A DNA stretch of 64,000 bases from an uncultured Holophagae bacterium (GCA_963844865.1 CAWJPY010000013.1:135821-199820), one strand, 5' to 3'. Counted from the stretch's first letter, positions 12,903-20,240 are shown. Notes: generated from the sequence alone by a model not told the origin. Made by a program: numbers and translations.

Positions 12903-13901
12903 TCAGCGGGAGTTTCGTTCTTTGACGATCTCGGCGGCGATGCTGATGGCGATCTCCTCCGGGGTGTGACTGGAGATGTCCAGACCCACGGGGGCACGGA
13001 CCCGGCCCAGCCGCTCGTCGGGGACTGCCTGCTCGCGCAGGTGGGCGAAGAGCTGCTTCACCTTGGCGGCGCTCCCCAGCAGGCCCAGGTAGCGCAGGTC
13101 TTTCCCGACCAGGCGCGACAGCACGAGCTCGTCGGCGGCATGGCCGTGGGTCATGATCACCGCCCACGAGCGCTCTCCGGCCACCACTTCACCGTCGCTG
13201 GCGGCATAGTCGATCACCCGTTTCTCGGTTGCCCAGCGGTTGGCCTCGAGCGTGGTCAGATCGGCACGGTCGTCGAGCACCACGATGCGGAAGGGGAGCG
13301 CGGCCATGACCCGGGACAGGGCCAGGGCGACGTGACCGCCGCCGAAGATGTACAGGGTGTCGAGGTCGCCGACAGTGACCTCGAAGCGCCACCCGCCGCC
13401 CGTGGTCTCGAACGAGGTGGGCGACCGCTGACCGGGCGCAAAGGACATGCCGTGGTTGGTGAGCTCGAGGGACCCGAAGCCGCCCCGGTCCAGTGCGGCG
13501 GCGACACCCTCCAGCGTCGGGAGCTGGTCACGCTCCAGGACGACCATGGCCAGGGTCTGGCGCCCCGAGCACAGGGAGCCGGAGGCGGCGGCGGTGTGCT
13601 CCACCTCGAAGAGCTCCGATCCTTTCTCGAGGTCGCGGGCCCGCTCCATGGCCTCGTGCTCCGCCACTCCGCCGCCCACGGTCCCTACCGACCCGAGGGA
13701 GGAGACCACCATGGCCGCGCCGGTGGCGCCGGGCACCGAGCCTGAGTGCTCCACGACGACCACCAGCACGGCACGGCCGCCAACTCGCACGGCATCCACG
13801 GCATGTCCCCACAGGTCTTTCACGGTGCGATTGTACGGCAGCGACAGTCTCGCCCGCCGCCACGGTTCCCAGCAGAAGCCCGGTGCCAGGTCCGTCCGCA
13901 A
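12903..13901 (-). CDS. XdhC/CoxI-family molybdoenzyme maturation accessory protein
   Basis: 'VLVVVVEHSGSVPGATGAAMVV' (XdhC_CoxI N-terminal domain) and a Rossmann-like 'LYIFGGGHVALALSRVMAALPF...VVLDDR'. The start is uncertain: the ORF maximum uses TTG at 13901. An in-frame GTG at 13823 sits 6 nt after a TACAAT box. Confidence 0.75.
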   Translation of the reverse strand: MRTDLAPGFCWEPWRRARLSLPYNRTVKDLWGHAVDAVRVGGRAVLVVVVEHSGSVPGATGAAMVVSSLGSVGTVGGGVAEHEAMERARDLEKGSELFEVEHTAAASGSLCSGRQTLAMVVLERDQLPTLEGVAAALDRGGFGSLELTNHGMSFAPGQRSPTSFETTGGGWRFEVTVGDLDTLYIFGGGHVALALSRVMAALPFRIVVLDDRADLTTLEANRWATEKRVIDYAASDGEVVAGERSWAVIMTHGHAADELVLSRLVGKDLRYLGLLGSAAKVKQLFAHLREQAVPDERLGRVRAPVGLDISSHTPEEIAISIAAEIVKERNSR

Positions 13902-13910
13902 AGTCTGCGG

Positions 13911-14150
13911 TCAGCGACGGTACACAGGGGCAGGAATCGGTGCCAGTGCCAGTGGCAGTGGCAGCGTCAGCGCCGGTCTCGGCAGCGTCTCCTCAACCCC
14001 GACCCGCGATCGCCACGTTCGCTCACCTGCCGTGGAGCCGCGGATGATCGCCGATCGCCGTCCGCTGATCCCTGGACGCCGAAGCTGACCGCTGTGCACT
14101 GCCGCTGTTGGCCGGCACTGCCGCCGTCGTTGGCCGTGGACGCGAACCCG
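13911..14150. repeat. Family-D micro-repeat tract
   Basis: ggtcagcgacgg, gccagtgccagtggcagtggcagcgtcagcg, gatcgccgatcgcc, ctgccgctg. Intergenic, between xdhC-like and rpiR-like genes. Confidence 0.5.
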
Positions 14151-14160
14151 GGAGCCGGGT

Positions 14161-15027
14161 CTAGCGATCGGACGGCAGGAGGTCCTTGTCCTCCCCCAGC
14201 ATGCGGTTGATCTGGGTCAGGGCATCCAGCGTCCGCTCGCGATGGCTGGTGGCGATCTCGGCAGCCAGGGCGTTCACGAGCACGGTGATGGCTGCGATGG
14301 CGTTGGTGAACATCATGTTGTCGCTCTTCGCGGCCAGCGCCCAGCGGGCGAGCTGGGCCGCCGGCGCGGTGAAGCGATCGCACAGCGCGCAGGTGGCGAG
14401 GCCCCGCTGCTGGGCCTCCCGCAGCAGCTCCAGGGTCTGCCGGGAGTAGGGGGGAAAGGAGAGCACGAGGAGCGCGTCGGACGGACGCAGCGCCACCACC
14501 TGCTCCCGAGGCGAGGAGAAGCGGGTGGAGAGCGCGCTGGCCCGGACCCCGATCTGGACCAGGGTGTAGGACGCGATCTCGGCCAGGTGGGCGGAGATGC
14601 CCATGCCGAAGGTGTAGGTGTGGTCCGCGCGGTAGACGGCGTCGCCGACCTCGGCGAAGACGCGGCGGTCGGCGGTCTCCACCGAGTGCCGGATGTTGCC
14701 GATCTCCAGGTCCGCGACCTGCTGCAGGACGTCCTCTGTGGCAGGCTGCGAGAGAGCTCTGCCGTTGCCGCCCAGCCGCTCCTGGAGGAGCTCGACCAGG
14801 TCCATCTTCAGCTCGGAGAAGCCGGAGTAGCCGATGCGCTGGGCGAAGCGGACCACGGTGGCCTCCGAGACCCCGGTGCGGTCGGCGAGCTCGGGGACTG
14901 ACAGGAAGGGGACCGTCTGCAGGTGCTCGAGGAGGTAGTCCGCGATGGCTCGTTGCTGGGGCGGCAGCTCGGCGGCATGGCGGACGATCAGCTCGCGCAG
15001 GTCGGACTCACGGGTCACGATGGGCAT
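14161..15027 (-). CDS. MurR/RpiR-family transcriptional regulator (HTH + SIS domain)
   Basis: 'QRAIADYLLEHLQTVPFLSVPELADRTGVSEATVVRFAQRIGYSGFSELK' is the RpiR HTH, followed by a SIS-like C-terminal half. Divergent from the receptor gene. Confidence 0.85.
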   Translation of the reverse strand: MPIVTRESDLRELIVRHAAELPPQQRAIADYLLEHLQTVPFLSVPELADRTGVSEATVVRFAQRIGYSGFSELKMDLVELLQERLGGNGRALSQPATEDVLQQVADLEIGNIRHSVETADRRVFAEVGDAVYRADHTYTFGMGISAHLAEIASYTLVQIGVRASALSTRFSSPREQVVALRPSDALLVLSFPPYSRQTLELLREAQQRGLATCALCDRFTAPAAQLARWALAAKSDNMMFTNAIAAITVLVNALAAEIATSHRERTLDALTQINRMLGEDKDLLPSDR

Positions 15028-15251
15028 GGAGATCTCCGAAGTGGGTGCCAGCGCTTGCGGACTCGATTCATGCGCGTCCGCACCCTCGCCCGAAGGAACG
15101 TCCTGATCCGGGCACGGACACGGAGGGGGGACCCGGGCAGGGATGGCGTCCGGCCACGAGGATCGTCAGGAGGGACGGGAACCTGAAGTTGCGCGTGGGA
15201 CCCGCGTCGCATCTGGGCTGTCTCAGGGCGGGATGGGGGCGTGACATCATA

Positions 15252-15288
15252 CATTTCATCTGATAGTCTACGTGAAATGGAAATTTCA
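15252..15288. promoter_or_regulatory. AT-rich operator-like cluster: ATTTCAT (x2 direct) and TGAAATG (inverted), plus the palindrome GAAATTTC
   Basis: acATTTCATc..cgTGAAATGGAAATTTCATc lies 24-60 nt upstream of the receptor ATG (15312), in the divergent rpiR/receptor intergenic region. It is the only AT-rich patch there. Confidence 0.4.
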
Positions 15289-15311
15289 TCAACTCCAGGA
15301 GGGAGGACCCC

Positions 15312-18074
15312 ATGAGTCGCACAGCAACTCTCAGCGTCGTGGTCGTGGTGGTGCTGTTGCTCACTGCCGGATCCGCGGCGGCGCAGAGCACAACGGGCAG
15401 CGTCCGGGGCGTCGTGACCGATCCCCAGGGGGCGGTGCTCCCCGGCGTCACGGTCGTGGCCATCTCGGACGCCCTCGTGGCGGGCCAACTGTCGGCGGTG
15501 ACCAGCACCCAGGGAGTGTACCGCTTCCCCTCGCTGCCGCCGGGGACGTACGTCCTGGAGGCCCACATGCCGGGCTTCCGGTCGGTGCGTCGGGACGGCG
15601 TCTCCGTGGGCCTGGGCCAGACCCTCGACGTGGACCTCCAGATGGGTGACGTCACGGTGTCCGGGGAGATCGTGGTGGTGGCGGATGCGGTCCAGGTGAG
15701 CACCGTCTCCAACAACGTCGGTTTCAACATGGACAAGACCTTCATCGAGCGCCAACCGCTGTCCCGGGACCCGGCCGGCCTGATGAACTACGCGCCGGGC
15801 ATCAACAATGATCAGGCCTACGGGGCGCCATCCACCTATCAGAACGCGTACAACCTGGACGGCGTCGACGTGTCCGACCCGGAGCTCGGGTCGCAGTGGG
15901 TCTTCCCCAACATGGACTGGGTCCAGGAGGTGCAGGTTGCCGGGCTCGGTGCGGACGCCGAGTACGGGGGCTTCACCGGGGCCGTGGTCAACCTGGTCAC
16001 CAAGTCCGGTGGGAACGAGCTCCACGGCGACGTGCGCGCCTACTACTCGGGGGGCGGCCTCAACGCCGAGAACGCGCCCCCGGGGGTGGAGGGCGCCAAC
16101 AAGCTGTCCAGTGACTGGGAGGGGAGCGTCAGCCTCGGCGGCAAGATCATCACCGACAAGCTGTGGTTCTTCGTCTCGGCCAGCGAGCGCAAGCGCACCA
16201 TCGATCCCTTCTTCTCCGCCGGCGCCCCCGACTTCGGACGGGAGTCGACGGTGCGGGAGTGGACCCAGGCCATCGGCAAGCTGACCTACCAGGCCAACGA
16301 GGCCAACCGGGGCGTGCTGCTCGTGGACTACGACGCGGTGGACGAGGACTACCGCGGGGTGGGCGACCTCACGCTGGCCGACGCTGCCGAGCACCAGGAC
16401 TCCCCCAGCTACTCCTTCAACGGCACCTGGGAGTCGCTGATCGACGACGCCAACTTCGTCACCGCCAAGCTGACCGGCTACAAGGGACAGGATGACCGGC
16501 GGCCCCATCGCGGCGACGAGCCGGGGCGCTACGACCTGGACTCCGGCTTCGAGTGGGTCAACCTGGCGGAGACCGGTTCCAAGGACGTGAAGCGGACCGC
16601 CTTCGACGTCTCCTGGAGCCTGTTCGCGGACGGCCTCATCACCTCGGGCGACTCCCACAACTTCAAGTTCGGGGGGACGTACGAGGACCTCAGCAGCGAC
16701 TACGTCACCCACGTCAACGGCGGCTTCACCTACGTCGACGACAGCTACTACGGAGGCTATGACGGGTGGGGCTGCGCCACCCTGGGCGACTACTTCGCCG
16801 ACCCCAACTGCGCCCTCTACTCCTCGGATCGAGGCGGCGAGTGGGACCTGCACGGCCGGATGTCCGGGATGCACCTCTACGCCCAGGACTCGTGGCAGGT
16901 GGGTCGGGTCACGGTGAACTACGGGGCCCGCTACACCCACTACACCGGAGGCTTCGCGGACGTCAGCGGCAACGTGTACGACCAGGACATGATCGCGCCC
17001 CGCGTCGGCCTGGTGTGGGATGTGGGCGGTGCCGGTCGGGCCGCGGTCAAGCTCCACTACGGGCGCTACTACGAGGGCATGGCGGTGGTCTTCTACGACC
17101 GCGAGGCCTCGGGCGCCGCGCTGACCGACACCGAGTACTGGGACTGGGACTTTGCGACCGGACAGTGGGTGCAGAACGGCGGCACCGTGAACGCCTGGGC
17201 GCAGATGGCCGACAACCTCACCCACCCCTCGGTGGAGCAGTTCGTGGCCACCTTCGAGCACGAGGTGGGGTCGGACATGGTGGTGGGCGTCGACTACATT
17301 CGCCGCCGCTACGACGACATCTTGGCGATGTACACCTCCAATGTGGGTGACTACGACGCCCTGGTGGCCCCGAACAACCCCCTCGGCGGCGGCGACCTGC
17401 CCTTCTACGAGCTCCTCGAGCCGCCCCAGTACGTGATCGGCAATCCCGCCGGCGCCAAGCGTGACTACGACTCGGCAGCCCTGCGCTTCCGCAAGCGCTA
17501 CAGCCACGGCTGGTACATGGACGCCTCCCTGGTGTGGTCGGACCTCACCGGCAACGCCGACTGGGCCCTGGCGGGCTACGCCGACGACTTCCAGGACCTC
17601 AACGGCACCATCAACGCCCAGGGCAGGCTGCCCTACAACTCCGACTGGGTGCTGAAGGTGTCGGGGTCCGTCGACCTGCCGTGGAAGATGCTGGCCTCTG
17701 CCTTCTACGTCTACCGCACCGGTGAGTACTGGACCCCCTACGTGCGCATCCGCGGCCTGCTGGAGAACGATCGCACCGGCGTCTTCATGACCGAGCGCGG
17801 CTCGCGCCAGTTGCCCGACCGGAGCGACCTCGACCTGCACCTGGAGAAGCTGGTGGACCTCGCCTCCGGCCTCGAGCTGGCAGTGATGGTGGATGTCTTC
17901 AACGTGTTCAACGACGACGCCGTCACCTCGGTGGTGACCCGTTGGGGCGACTACCGCTACCAGTGGGACGCCCACCCCGAGGAGAGCGAGTGGCGCCCCA
18001 ACGACGCCTTCGCGACTCCCACGGACATCCAGAGCCCGCGCGCGGTGCGTGTCGGCGCCCGGGTGCGGTTCTGA
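15312..18074 (+). CDS. Outer-membrane TonB-dependent-receptor-like protein with N-terminal carboxypeptidase-regulatory-like domain
   Basis: Signal peptide 'LLLTAGSAAAQS', then 'GSVRGVVTDPQGAVLPGVTVVA...GVYRFPSLPPGTYVLEA' (CarboxypepD_reg). Long beta-barrel-like remainder ending in an aromatic residue ('VGARVRF'). Strong RBS ggagggagg. Confidence 0.8.
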   Translation: MSRTATLSVVVVVVLLLTAGSAAAQSTTGSVRGVVTDPQGAVLPGVTVVAISDALVAGQLSAVTSTQGVYRFPSLPPGTYVLEAHMPGFRSVRRDGVSVGLGQTLDVDLQMGDVTVSGEIVVVADAVQVSTVSNNVGFNMDKTFIERQPLSRDPAGLMNYAPGINNDQAYGAPSTYQNAYNLDGVDVSDPELGSQWVFPNMDWVQEVQVAGLGADAEYGGFTGAVVNLVTKSGGNELHGDVRAYYSGGGLNAENAPPGVEGANKLSSDWEGSVSLGGKIITDKLWFFVSASERKRTIDPFFSAGAPDFGRESTVREWTQAIGKLTYQANEANRGVLLVDYDAVDEDYRGVGDLTLADAAEHQDSPSYSFNGTWESLIDDANFVTAKLTGYKGQDDRRPHRGDEPGRYDLDSGFEWVNLAETGSKDVKRTAFDVSWSLFADGLITSGDSHNFKFGGTYEDLSSDYVTHVNGGFTYVDDSYYGGYDGWGCATLGDYFADPNCALYSSDRGGEWDLHGRMSGMHLYAQDSWQVGRVTVNYGARYTHYTGGFADVSGNVYDQDMIAPRVGLVWDVGGAGRAAVKLHYGRYYEGMAVVFYDREASGAALTDTEYWDWDFATGQWVQNGGTVNAWAQMADNLTHPSVEQFVATFEHEVGSDMVVGVDYIRRRYDDILAMYTSNVGDYDALVAPNNPLGGGDLPFYELLEPPQYVIGNPAGAKRDYDSAALRFRKRYSHGWYMDASLVWSDLTGNADWALAGYADDFQDLNGTINAQGRLPYNSDWVLKVSGSVDLPWKMLASAFYVYRTGEYWTPYVRIRGLLENDRTGVFMTERGSRQLPDRSDLDLHLEKLVDLASGLELAVMVDVFNVFNDDAVTSVVTRWGDYRYQWDAHPEESEWRPNDAFATPTDIQSPRAVRVGARVRF

Positions 18075-18135
18075 CCTGAAGCTGTCGAGGGTGGGGCGGC
18101 GTTCGCCGCCCCACCGCGTCGATCGGGGATACACC

Positions 18136-19002
18136 ATGAGGAACGGACTCATCGCGGCCCTCTTCTCGCTCACTGTGTCGGCAGGCATGGCCTCGGCGGC
18201 GACGCCGAAGGGGAACCTGGTGCTCATCGGCGGCGGCTCCAAGCCCGCTGCGGCCATGACGAAGTTCGTCGAGCTGGCTGGAGGGCCGGACGCGGCCATC
18301 ATCGTCTTCCCCACCGCGTCCGAGGCAGCTGACACCCCCGCCTATTACCGGGACCTGTTCGGCAAAGAGCTGGGTTGCAGTGACGTGTTCGTGGCCCCCG
18401 TGCACGAGCGCGCGGACGCCCTCGACGAGGTCCTGGCCGCACGGGTGGCGGCGGCGGGGGGCATCTTCTTCGGCGGCGGCGACCAGCGCCGGATCACGTC
18501 CGCGCTCAACGGGACGCCGGTCGGGGAGGCGGTCCGGGACGCCTACGAGCGGGGCGCGGTGATCGGCGGCACCTCCGCCGGCACCGCCTGCCAGAGCCCC
18601 CTGATGATCACGGGTGACGGCGACTTCACCGTCCTGACGGCCGGCAACGTCGTTCTCACGGAGGGCCTGGGCCTGTTCCGGGGGGTGATCGTGGACCAGC
18701 ACTTCGTGGCCCGGCGCCGGGCCAATCGCCTGCTCTCCGTGGTCATGGAGCATCCCGACCTGGTGGGCGTCGGCGTCGACGAGGGCACCGCGATCTGGGT
18801 GCGCCCCGACAGCACGTTCCTGGTTCTCGGGGACGGTTGGGTCGTCGTCTTCGACGCCCGGAGGGCGACGGTGCAGCGAGGCGCCGACCTGGCCACGGGC
18901 ACCGCTCTCGGCGTGCACGGGATGCTGACCCACGTGCTGCTGCCGGGCGAGACCTTTGACCTGGAGCGGGGCGAGACCACGGCGTCGGACGCGGCCCCAT
19001 GA
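18136..19002 (+). CDS. Cyanophycinase-like S51 serine peptidase with signal peptide
   Basis: 'GNLVLIGGGSKP', 'GIFFGGGDQRR', nucleophile motif 'IGGTSAGTACQS', 'VDQHFVARRRANRL'. Start placed at ATG 18136, giving 'MRNGLIAALFSLTVSAGMASA'. Confidence 0.8.
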   Translation: MRNGLIAALFSLTVSAGMASAATPKGNLVLIGGGSKPAAAMTKFVELAGGPDAAIIVFPTASEAADTPAYYRDLFGKELGCSDVFVAPVHERADALDEVLAARVAAAGGIFFGGGDQRRITSALNGTPVGEAVRDAYERGAVIGGTSAGTACQSPLMITGDGDFTVLTAGNVVLTEGLGLFRGVIVDQHFVARRRANRLLSVVMEHPDLVGVGVDEGTAIWVRPDSTFLVLGDGWVVVFDARRATVQRGADLATGTALGVHGMLTHVLLPGETFDLERGETTASDAAP

Positions 19003-20240
19003 GCCGGAGCCCACTCGTCGAGGAGATCCGGTCGGCGGCAACGGGGCTCCTGGAGGAGCTGTGCGCCATCTCGTCGGAGAGCGGCGACCTGGCGGGGCTC
19101 CACGCCATGGGGGAGCGCCTGGCACTCGAGCTGGAGCCGTTCGGGTTCCGGTCCGAGCTGCTCCCCGCCGCCGGCATCGACGGGCGTGAGCACCCGGTGC
19201 TGGTGGCGGCGGGGCCGACGGCGCCGACGGCCCCGCGGAGGCGCGTGCTGCTCGTCGGGCACCTCGACACGGTGCTGCCGGCGGTGCCGCCGCACCGGGA
19301 GCCCGGCCGCCTCCACGGCACCGGCGCCCTCGACATGAAGGGGGGGTTCGCCGCCCTGGTGGGCGCGCTGCACCTGCTCTCGGAGAGTGGGGGGGCGGTG
19401 CCAGAGGATCTGCTGCTGGTGGGCGTGCCCGACGAGGAGGTCGGGGGACCCATCTCGGCGCGCATGGTCCGCGAGTGGGGGAGGGAGGCACGGGCCATGC
19501 TGGTCCTGGAGCCGGGACAGGGCCGGATGGGTGGCGAGACACTGGTGGCCGGTCGCCGCGGCCTGGCGGCGTGGCGTCTGGATGCCCGTGGCCGCGCTGC
19601 GCACTCCGGGCTGGACTACTGGCAGGGGCGCTCGGCGATCGCGGCGGCGGCCGCATTCTGTGCGTCGGCTCAGGCGCTTTCCGAGCGGGGGGCGGGACCG
19701 GTGGTGAACGTGGGCCGGATCGTGGGCGGCGACTCGGATTTCGTCCGTGACCTGGCCGAGGAGCACCGGTTCATCGGCACCTCACAGCGCATCAACGTGG
19801 TCCCGGACAGCTGCGTGGCCGAGGGCGAGGTGCGTTTCCTGTGTGGCGAGGACGGTGACCGCATCCTGGCTCTGCTCCAGGAGCTGGCCGCTCAGGAGGG
19901 GCGGCGCTGGGAGGTGGCCATGAGCCTGCGTGAGCTGGAGCGTGTCGCCCCGATGACCTCCTCCGGTCCGGCGGGAGAGCTGGCTGCGAAGCTGGTGGAG
20001 GCGGCCGAAAGGGACGGCTGGACCCTCGAGCTGGAGCGGGACCGTGGTGGCGTCTCCTTTCCCAACTGCCTGCCCGACCCGTCCGCCCTGCCGATCCTCG
20101 ACGGGCTGGGGCCGGTGGGGGGCGGCATGCACACGCGGGGCGAGTACCTCGACCTGGGCTCGCTCGGGCGCCGCATCCCACTCATCGCCGAGGCCATCAG
20201 CCTGGCCGCCGCGCTCCCGTGCCCCCCGCAATCATCCTGA
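18999..20240 (+). CDS. M20-family metallopeptidase (carboxypeptidase G2 / dipeptidase-like)
   Basis: 'LLVGHLDTVLP', 'GTGALDMKGG', 'VGVPDEEVGG'. ATGA start/stop overlap with the cyanophycinase gene. Confidence 0.8.
   Translation: MSRSPLVEEIRSAATGLLEELCAISSESGDLAGLHAMGERLALELEPFGFRSELLPAAGIDGREHPVLVAAGPTAPTAPRRRVLLVGHLDTVLPAVPPHREPGRLHGTGALDMKGGFAALVGALHLLSESGGAVPEDLLLVGVPDEEVGGPISARMVREWGREARAMLVLEPGQGRMGGETLVAGRRGLAAWRLDARGRAAHSGLDYWQGRSAIAAAAAFCASAQALSERGAGPVVNVGRIVGGDSDFVRDLAEEHRFIGTSQRINVVPDSCVAEGEVRFLCGEDGDRILALLQELAAQEGRRWEVAMSLRELERVAPMTSSGPAGELAAKLVEAAERDGWTLELERDRGGVSFPNCLPDPSALPILDGLGPVGGGMHTRGEYLDLGSLGRRIPLIAEAISLAAALPCPPQSS

Follow-up and report, generated by a model that had tools for sequence, protein, structure and literature searches.

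What does the locus encode?

The locus discussed here lies in a 64,000-nucleotide stretch of DNA (GCA_963844865.1 CAWJPY010000013.1:135821-199820; this whole stretch is called the window below) from an uncultured Holophagae bacterium, and it encodes a regulator of the RpiR/MurR family, an outer-membrane receptor, an exported enzyme of peptidase family S51 and a metallohydrolase of family M20 (M20a), a combination that might well serve the scavenging of cyanophycin. Scans with Pfam and curated hidden Markov models (HMMs) place all four genes exactly where a preliminary description of this DNA had put them (Table 1). The three genes on the plus strand form an operon, since the flanks hold other things: an export system of the MacB/FtsX-ABC-HlyD type and an M90 peptidase downstream on the opposite strand, and XdhC, Sir2 and the 2-oxoglutarate dehydrogenase E1 component upstream. 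G+C content of the window is about 70%, and the source assembly (4.74 Mb, 32 contigs, 93% complete) belongs to the Thermoanaerobaculales, Acidobacteriota, going by the names of its homologues.

The preliminary description had reported a regulator gene divergent from the receptor gene, a secreted S51 protein with the nucleophile motif GGTSAG, an M20 gene whose start codon overlaps the preceding stop (ATGA) and the lack of a cyanophycin synthetase gene (cphA) in the window. All of this holds, and a search for cphA across the whole 93% complete assembly likewise came back empty, its best match (69.8 bits) being a Mur ligase.

Table 1. Features of the locus, in window coordinates (aa, amino acids)
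Feature	Position	Strand	Basis or description
RpiR/MurR-family regulator	14161..15027	-	Pfam HTH_6 68.8 bits and SIS 52.9 bits; divergent from operon
Candidate operator	15253..15288	+	Two TTTCAT repeats 30 nucleotides (nt) apart start to start, inverted copy between them, about 24 nt before receptor ATG
TonB-dependent outer-membrane transporter, predicted, 920 aa	15312..18074	+	Signal peptide, CarboxypepD_reg, OMP_b-brl_4, plug, barrel
GC-rich intercistronic hairpin between receptor and cyanophycinase genes	18085..18127	+	RNA fold -36.7 kcal/mol, z -3.5 against shuffles; no T-run after it
Sec-exported cyanophycinase (S51), predicted, 288-aa precursor	18136..19002	+	TIGR02069, triad and pocket residues, tree
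Cytoplasmic CPG2-like M20 dinuclear metallohydrolase (M20a), predicted	18999..20240	+	Pfam M20 and M20_dimer; ATGA overlap with S51 stop

Is the S51 protein a cyanophycinase?

Judged from its sequence, it is. The protein scores 181.8 bits on the cyanophycinase equivalog TIGR02069 (cut-off 126.6) and 30.8 bits on the PepE model (cut-off 156), and its closest structures in the PDB are the cyanophycinases 7uqv (E 1.7e-44) and 3en0 (E 1.6e-32). When it is aligned to 3en0, the triad (Ser132, His174 and Glu201) and the pocket residues Gln101, Asp172, Gln173, Arg178, Arg180 and Arg183 are all identical, and the same positions are invariant in 75 orthologues, except that Gln101 is kept in 74 of the 75. 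These pocket residues are critical for cyanophycinase according to Law 2009, as cited in a passage of PMC3235067.

A quick maximum-likelihood tree, rooted on E. coli PepE and built without rows for the bona fide Synechocystis CphB and Pseudomonas CphE, puts the window enzyme inside a clade (SH-aLRT 94) that also contains enzymes encoded next to cphA in Ruegeria and Deinococcus, an enzyme from Legionella, which in its annotated context sits beside a Mur-ligase-family (cphA-like) gene and IaaA, and one from the cyanobacterium Kovacikia. Within the clade, one group (support 86) unites the exported enzymes of Acidobacteriota, Ignavibacteria-type genomes, Gemmatirosa and Pseudoalteromonas and lies beside the cphA-linked group (83); both of these values are moderate and several branches are long. 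PepE and the S51 paralogues of Acidobacteriota fall outside the clade. The possibility raised in the preliminary description, that the protein might cluster with PepE-type dipeptidases, is thus refuted in concert by HMM scores, PDB matches, residues and tree.

The open reading frame (ORF) extends from 18049 to 19002, and the likely start is the ATG at 18136, with GGGGA 8 nt upstream. A longer version beginning at GTG 18049 was rejected, because its additional 29 residues are unconserved and orthologues begin at the signal peptide. The precursor begins MRNGLIAALFSLTVSAGMASA and continues with A; judged by eye this is a Sec signal, with Arg in the n-region, a hydrophobic core of 11-15 residues and the junction ASA/A, leaving a mature protein of 267 aa. 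The signal peptide is conserved in the orthologues of Acidobacteriota and of Bacteroidota-type loci. In genomes that possess a type IX secretion system (T9SS) the homologues have no T9SS tail, whereas a neighbouring protein does, which hints that the cyanophycinase is periplasmic. Several relatives also encode a second, distant S51 paralogue (28-35% identity), which falls outside the cyanophycinase clade, within a few kb of the cyanophycinase and M20 genes (L019:13220-14005; G005:C7:77155-77946; L049:15289-16050; L085:4832-5476; here and below, L numbers are our handles for loci, G for genomes and C for contigs).

What kind of enzyme is M20a?

M20a, which lacks a signal peptide, is in all likelihood translationally coupled to the cyanophycinase through the ATGA overlap. 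Its closest structure in the PDB is CPG2 (1cg2; E 6e-23, 84.7 bits), and H88, D112, E146, E147, E171 and H378, which are invariant in 28 orthologues, align with CPG2 motifs that we take to be the metal ligands and the general-base Glu of that enzyme. Beyond this fold-level resemblance the protein stands apart: it falls below every curated NCBIfam cut-off (the best being PRK07338, 'hydrolase', at 161.6 bits against 357), including those of all the characterised M20 subfamilies (CPG2, DapE, ArgE, PepT, LysK and others). It is also unrelated to the known cyanophycin dipeptidase families IadA, IaaA and CphZ. Since only 47 clusters among 1.8 billion representatives match it at E<=1e-30, after which scores drop steeply to those of generic M20 proteins, M20a is, by this sequence census, a small and distinct subfamily.

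In chemical terms beta-Asp-Arg, the product of a cyanophycinase, can be seen as an N-(beta-aspartyl) amino acid, and enzymes of the CPG2, DapE and ArgE type cleave N-acyl amino acids. M20a is a candidate beta-Asp-Arg hydrolase.

What might the receptor carry?

An AlphaFold model of the receptor, built on 25 orthologues (pLDDT 77, pTM 0.78), places it among the TonB-dependent transporters (TBDTs), proteins with a plug within a 22-strand barrel. Foldseek matches the model along its entire length, first to the ferredoxin importer FusA (4zgv, E 7e-44) and YddB (6ofr, E 6e-40) and then to more than 400 TBDT chains, with a probability of 1.00 over about 850-900 columns. The segment GEIVVVADA (residues 117-125), between the N-terminal domain and the plug, looks by eye like a TonB box, and the genome encodes seven TonB_C proteins. 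A Plug domain is detected by Pfam in the receptor homologue of the Bacteroidota-type loci.

The top structural matches are the polypeptide importers FusA and YddB and not siderophore receptors. This ranking hints that the receptor might admit peptide chains, although it may simply reflect size. As for the hairpin that follows the receptor gene, one possibility is that it sets how much enzyme transcript is made relative to receptor transcript; another is that it is a repeat element.

How might the locus be regulated?

The regulator combines an N-terminal HTH_6 domain with a C-terminal SIS domain, as membership of the RpiR/MurR family requires, and reaches no curated equivalog. An RpiR gene holds the same position at 21 related loci, and the linkage of RpiR with S51 extends to the Bacteroidota-type clusters. 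The spacer between the regulator and receptor genes, which holds the sole AT-rich patch, contains the TTTCAT repeats, starting at 15253 and 15283. Most of the 21 orthologous spacers (L013-L073 among them) have such repeats shortly before the ribosome-binding site of the receptor gene, six of them sharing the exact 30-nt spacing with the window, and the promoter-like words TTGACA and ATGATAG are common in the 21 spacers too. In the 4.74-Mb genome the strict TTTCAT pair occurs at one site only, namely this spacer. We see the pair as a candidate operator, to which RpiR would presumably bind.

How widely is the gene set conserved?

We mapped 80 loci around S51 orthologues from named metagenome-assembled genomes (MAGs), using tblastn and a GC3-based gene caller (gene clustering having called false antisense ORFs in sequence so rich in G+C), and 46 of them have at least 6 kb of sequence on each side. 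Near the S51 gene, a receptor is found at 42 of these 46 loci, a permease of the DcuC/YfcC family at 42, a regulator also at 42 (16 RpiR and 26 GntR/FCD), an M20 gene of any kind at 30 (24 M20a and 6 of a second type, M20b) and an exported PGA_cap protein at 21. The commonest architecture, in which YfcC and RpiR genes run leftwards and receptor, S51 and M20a genes rightwards (YfcC<-RpiR<- ->TBDR-S51-M20a), is the layout of the window with the permease added.

Co-occurrence was examined in 40 genomes drawn from the same family and order. Their kinship makes them non-independent samples, and the counts that follow are suggestive and overstate the support accordingly. Receptor and S51 genes are adjacent nearly everywhere that both occur. 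M20a is present in 22 of the 24 genomes with an S51 orthologue and in none of the 16 without (0/16). In one family, f1, it directly follows S51 in all nine genomes that have all three genes (9/9), as it does in G037, and the presence of the S51/M20a pair is patchy among the genera, always concordantly. In another family, f2, the two genes are unlinked or a few kb apart; 14 of its genomes have both and 2 have neither. A bona fide IadA is encoded in G011 and in G018, the two S51-positive genomes without M20a. Synteny of the three genes in relatives, on which the preliminary description had made its proposal depend, is thus borne out, and M20a accompanies S51 even where the two are unlinked.

One additional genome, G029, has both S51 and M20a, and both look broken: at G029:C78:8943-12403 the S51 gene is partial with an in-frame TAG and M20a consists of two overlapping pieces, as though the locus were decaying with both genes hit.

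A second M20 enzyme replaces M20a at some of the loci in Acidobacteriota. This M20b is PepT-like (TIGR01883, 239-244 bits), shares only 22% identity with M20a across 114 aa, likewise has no signal peptide, and is arranged as YfcC<-M20b<- ->GntR-receptor-S51-PGA_cap. M20b, S51 and YfcC are also carried together by four Ignavibacteria/Melioribacteraceae MAGs. The phylum that holds the Ignavibacteria is Bacteroidota in GTDB, and of 301 genomes sampled from it, 13 encode a homologue of M20b. Identity is 40% or more for twelve copies, of which 11 lie directly beside an exported S51 gene and the twelfth forms an M20b-YfcC pair alone. The full set of M20b, S51, YfcC, RpiR and receptor, in which a space of about 1.3 kb precedes RpiR, is present at eight of the 11 loci, and the other three are shorter or partial. 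No cphA was found in the three Ignavibacteria genomes checked. M20a and M20b never occur together in one sampled genome.

We regard this as the strongest argument that the M20 enzymes would act on the product of the cyanophycinase, because two unrelated M20 proteins, both predicted to be cytoplasmic, have been kept beside an exported S51 enzyme and a permease in two phyla.

At L105, the one such locus that was annotated, the space between YfcC and RpiR encodes a further protein (L105:9482-10609, plus strand): it has 375 aa and a T9SS C-terminal sorting domain, with no other recognisable domain, and could be a surface component that binds the polymer or attacks it first.

Where is the permease?

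The nearest curated model to the permease is 'putative basic amino acid antiporter YfcC', to which the locus-linked proteins score 349-408 bits against a cut-off of 500. The sole YfcC orthologue in the window's own genome, 74% identical, is on another contig (C29, 33301-34725) among signalling genes. In two relatives a YfcC-type permease gene lies between XdhC and RpiR (L019:4535-5875 and L046:4624-6030), a space that in the window measures only 259 bp (13901-14161). Because of this short gap and the position of the only orthologue, the permease gene seems to have been moved or replaced in the window's lineage.

After the cyanophycinase gene, about half of the related loci encode an exported or membrane-anchored PGA_cap (CapA-like) protein (L035:10944-12299, plus strand, and 32 others), which scores 171 bits on PF09587, is weakly similar to the lasso-peptide epimerase MslH, often takes the slot of M20a and is absent from the window's genome.

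What might the locus do?

Our preferred reading, to which we give slightly more credence than doubt, is that this is a regulated locus through which an organism that makes no cyanophycin uses external cyanophycin, or soluble multi-Arg-poly-Asp fragments, as a source of nitrogen and carbon. Comparative genomics lends such a reading good support. The TonB-dependent transporter would bring cyanophycin-derived material across the outer membrane, and the Sec-exported cyanophycinase would cut it to beta-Asp-Arg, probably in the periplasm. The YfcC/DcuC permease, whose gene most relatives have linked to the locus and this genome has on another contig, would carry the dipeptide to the cytoplasm, where the M20 enzyme would split it into Asp and Arg, in place of IadA, IaaA or CphZ. 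RpiR would control the operon, probably at the TTTCAT repeats before the receptor gene.

A bolder version generalises this to M20a (CPG2-like) and M20b (PepT-like) as dedicated hydrolases of the cyanophycin dipeptide, a fourth and fifth solution beside IadA, IaaA and CphZ. YfcC would be the beta-Asp-Arg importer, and the TonB receptor would admit chains or oligomers to a periplasmic cyanophycinase, the whole forming a system, resembling a polysaccharide utilization locus (PUL), common to Acidobacteriota and Ignavibacteria-type Bacteroidota. We offer this tentatively, as an idea that stands somewhat short of an even chance.

A number of observations sit uncomfortably with such a pathway. RpiR/SIS regulators usually sense sugar phosphates, which is a poor fit to a peptide pathway, and some of the related loci have GntR/FCD regulators instead. 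No Plug domain is recognised by Pfam in the window receptor, even at E<=1, and the YfcC gene lies outside the window, with no TTTCAT pair upstream of the copy on C29. The M20 connection is also narrow. In a sample of 401 Acidobacteriota genomes, 80 have an S51 homologue at E<=1e-40 (a count that includes the unpublished genome G064, so that publishing the figure needs the permission of that genome's depositors), M20a occurs in 10 and M20b in 7, and only about 10 of the 80 S51-positive genomes have either. Since so few of the sampled genomes carry M20a or M20b, the M20 link belongs, as far as these sequences tell, to one S51 subclade. Three of the 10 M20a-positive genomes in this sample have no S51 hit at that threshold; in one of them, G096, M20a is paired with YfcC, an arrangement that would fit a pure scavenger of the dipeptide, as described for CphZ (PMC9974463), and also fits a broader function. 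The neighbourhoods of M20a outside the order (G045, G085, G302 and G401), with PLD, TPR, a tricorn-like protease and an N-acetyltransferase, proved uninformative.

The genome also has a rival for the last step. No IadA and no gene of the AstE/AspA family (CphZ-like) was found in the 93% complete assembly, which has a single cyanophycinase gene. There is, however, one Asparaginase_2/IaaA-like gene (C6:333236-334213, locus L011), unlinked to the operon, whose product has a lipoprotein-type signal (…LITVTAC), scores 272 bits on the beta-aspartyl-peptidase model and would, by that signal, act in the periplasm or on the membrane surface. M20a is thus not the sole candidate. Cleavage of beta-Asp-Arg by this lipoprotein, on the periplasmic side, could leave M20a needless for that step; cyanophycin would still be scavenged, Arg and Asp would then be taken up with YfcC as the carrier, and M20a would be a downstream or general enzyme, one that trims other peptides, for instance, or deacylates an N-acyl amino acid. 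Hydrolysis of beta-Asp-Arg by IaaA is proven for other bacteria (PMC10206079), the name of YfcC as a basic amino acid antiporter agrees with this, and M20a occurs without S51 in some genomes. Asparaginase_2 genes are also present in 34 of 41 relatives, but irrespective of S51, being equally common where S51 is lacking, and this spread therefore suits a housekeeping enzyme; an IaaA-like gene lies within 10 kb of S51 at just 2 of the 46 loci. The retention of two unrelated M20 enzymes beside S51 in two phyla likewise speaks against this version, and the two S51-positive genomes without M20a have IadA in its stead rather than nothing. We think this version rather unlikely, if worth serious attention.

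It is less probable again, in our view, that the substrate is some other exogenous polyamide or isopeptide, such as another beta-aspartyl or basic poly-amino acid. An RpiR regulator is atypical for a pathway that handles peptides, the exported protein that follows S51 at about half of the related loci belongs to a poly-gamma-glutamate capsule family, and M20a is CPG2-like and is annotated as 'glutamate carboxypeptidase' in its sources; set against these are the triad and the six cyanophycin-binding residues of the CphB pocket, all invariant, a score above the curated equivalog cut-off and a place in the tree with cphA-linked cyanophycinases, and this S51 clade is not known to us to act on anything else. 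That the genes are neighbours merely by descent in one lineage, with no shared function, is an explanation that we disfavour and consider very improbable: the relatives are closely related MAGs whose synteny could be inherited, and in family f2 M20a lies apart from S51, yet the same gene set recurs in another phylum with a different M20 and a different order, the presence of S51 and M20a is concordant across the patchy genera of f1, and the S51 stop overlaps the M20a start.

How does the locus compare with known systems?

The preliminary description thought this not to be a described type of operon, which is too strong, since scavenging of external cyanophycin, utilisation loci and the adjacency of receptor and cyanophycinase are already published, including for this clade. 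Passages of Flieder et al. (PMC8528874) report exported cyanophycinases without cphA in Ca. Sulfomarinibacter MAGs (Thermoanaerobaculia) and propose an external substrate; an isoaspartyl dipeptidase is named in one MAG, and the main-text passages do not name the receptor, M20 or YfcC. The window belongs to that clade, shares the Sec signal and the lack of cphA, and has M20a homologues named Sulfomarinibacteraceae and Thermoanaerobaculales. A cyanophycin utilization locus of the Bacteroidetes strain L21-Spi-D4, a scavenger of cyanobacteria, with cyanophycinase, iadA and a transporter, was reported by Ben Hania 2017, as relayed in part by PMC10206079, which also describes scavenging clusters of cyanophycinase with IaaA or IadA in genomes without cphA1, and the adjacency of a TonB-dependent transporter and a cyanophycinase was pointed out for Citromicrobium in 2012 (PMC3400609). 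We found no literature that links cyanophycinase with M20, PepT-like, glutamate carboxypeptidase, DcuC or YfcC proteins, in a search that reached few subscription journals, and what appears to be undescribed is confined to the M20 and YfcC components and the link to RpiR.

The L21-Spi-D4 locus is like the window in having no cphA and in clustering a cyanophycinase with a second hydrolase and transport genes, from which use of cyanophycin released by others is deduced. The window differs in having M20 and not IadA or IaaA, a TonB-dependent receptor and, in relatives, a YfcC/DcuC permease, and an RpiR or GntR regulator. CphZ/AotO, a dedicated M14 beta-Asp-Arg dipeptidase with the AotJQMP importer, which is found also in genomes lacking cyanophycinase (PMC9974463), is a cytoplasmic metallohydrolase paired with an importer, as is proposed for M20a; the fold and clan of M20a are those of M20 (clan MH) and not M14, and its activity is presumptive.

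As for the cyanophycinase, it shares fold family, triad and pocket with CphB (3en0, 7uqw), 7uqv and CphE. It is of CphB size and exported, unlike CphB itself, and its Sec signal resembles that of CphE; Pseudomonas CphE has about 420 aa and Thr in place of Gln173 (PMC3235067), whereas the window enzyme is short, keeps Gln173 and may be periplasmic. The term 'CphE-like' used in the preliminary description is therefore apt for the export signal and otherwise an analogy. M20a has the catalytic and dimerisation domains and the dinuclear-site residues of CPG2 (1cg2), DapE and ArgE, and departs from them in its low score to CPG2, in lying under every curated subfamily cut-off and in having no signal peptide. 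The FusA-FusC and YddB-PqqL systems, which import a polypeptide through a TonB-dependent transporter and then degrade it in the periplasm, resemble the window in having a receptor beside an exported hydrolase; the likeness is of fold and size only, at 13-14% identity, and the cargo of the window receptor could, in contrast to theirs, be the dipeptide itself.

Why does it matter?

Cyanophycin is a widespread store of nitrogen and carbon, and its harvest by organisms that do not produce it shapes the recycling of nitrogen in sediments, soils and mats. Many genomes that metabolise cyanophycin have no recognisable enzyme for the last step (PMC10206079, PMC9974463), and the cyanophycin dipeptidases of Firmicutes and Bacteroidota are still undiscovered (PMC10206079). 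The locus offers a set of clonable candidates in two M20 enzymes, a YfcC permease, a TonB receptor and a regulator with a candidate operator. Were the M20 proposal true, part of the isoaspartyl dipeptidase that is missing from Bacteroidota would be supplied (PMC10206079), genes now annotated as 'glutamate carboxypeptidase' or 'YfcC family' could be better named, and the genes of the locus would provide markers for cyanophycin scavenging in metagenomes of the abundant uncultured Acidobacteriota.

Other cyanophycinase loci

Outside these two groups, tblastn found no partner gene at the S51 locus of Gemmatirosa. Matches to cyanophycinase in a plasmid collection were in canonical contexts, with cphA and/or IaaA, and no M20 gene was near the cyanophycinase of a Cytobacillus plasmid or a Mitsuaria plasmid. 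On a plasmid of Natronosalvus amylolyticus (NZ_CP101160.1, 240855-257757; L124), two long cyanophycinase genes lie beside an M28 metallopeptidase, a peptide-type ABC importer and an agmatinase. M28 is a family that we take to belong to the same clan as M20 (MEROPS clan MH), and perhaps here too a hydrolase of that clan belongs to a scavenging cluster.

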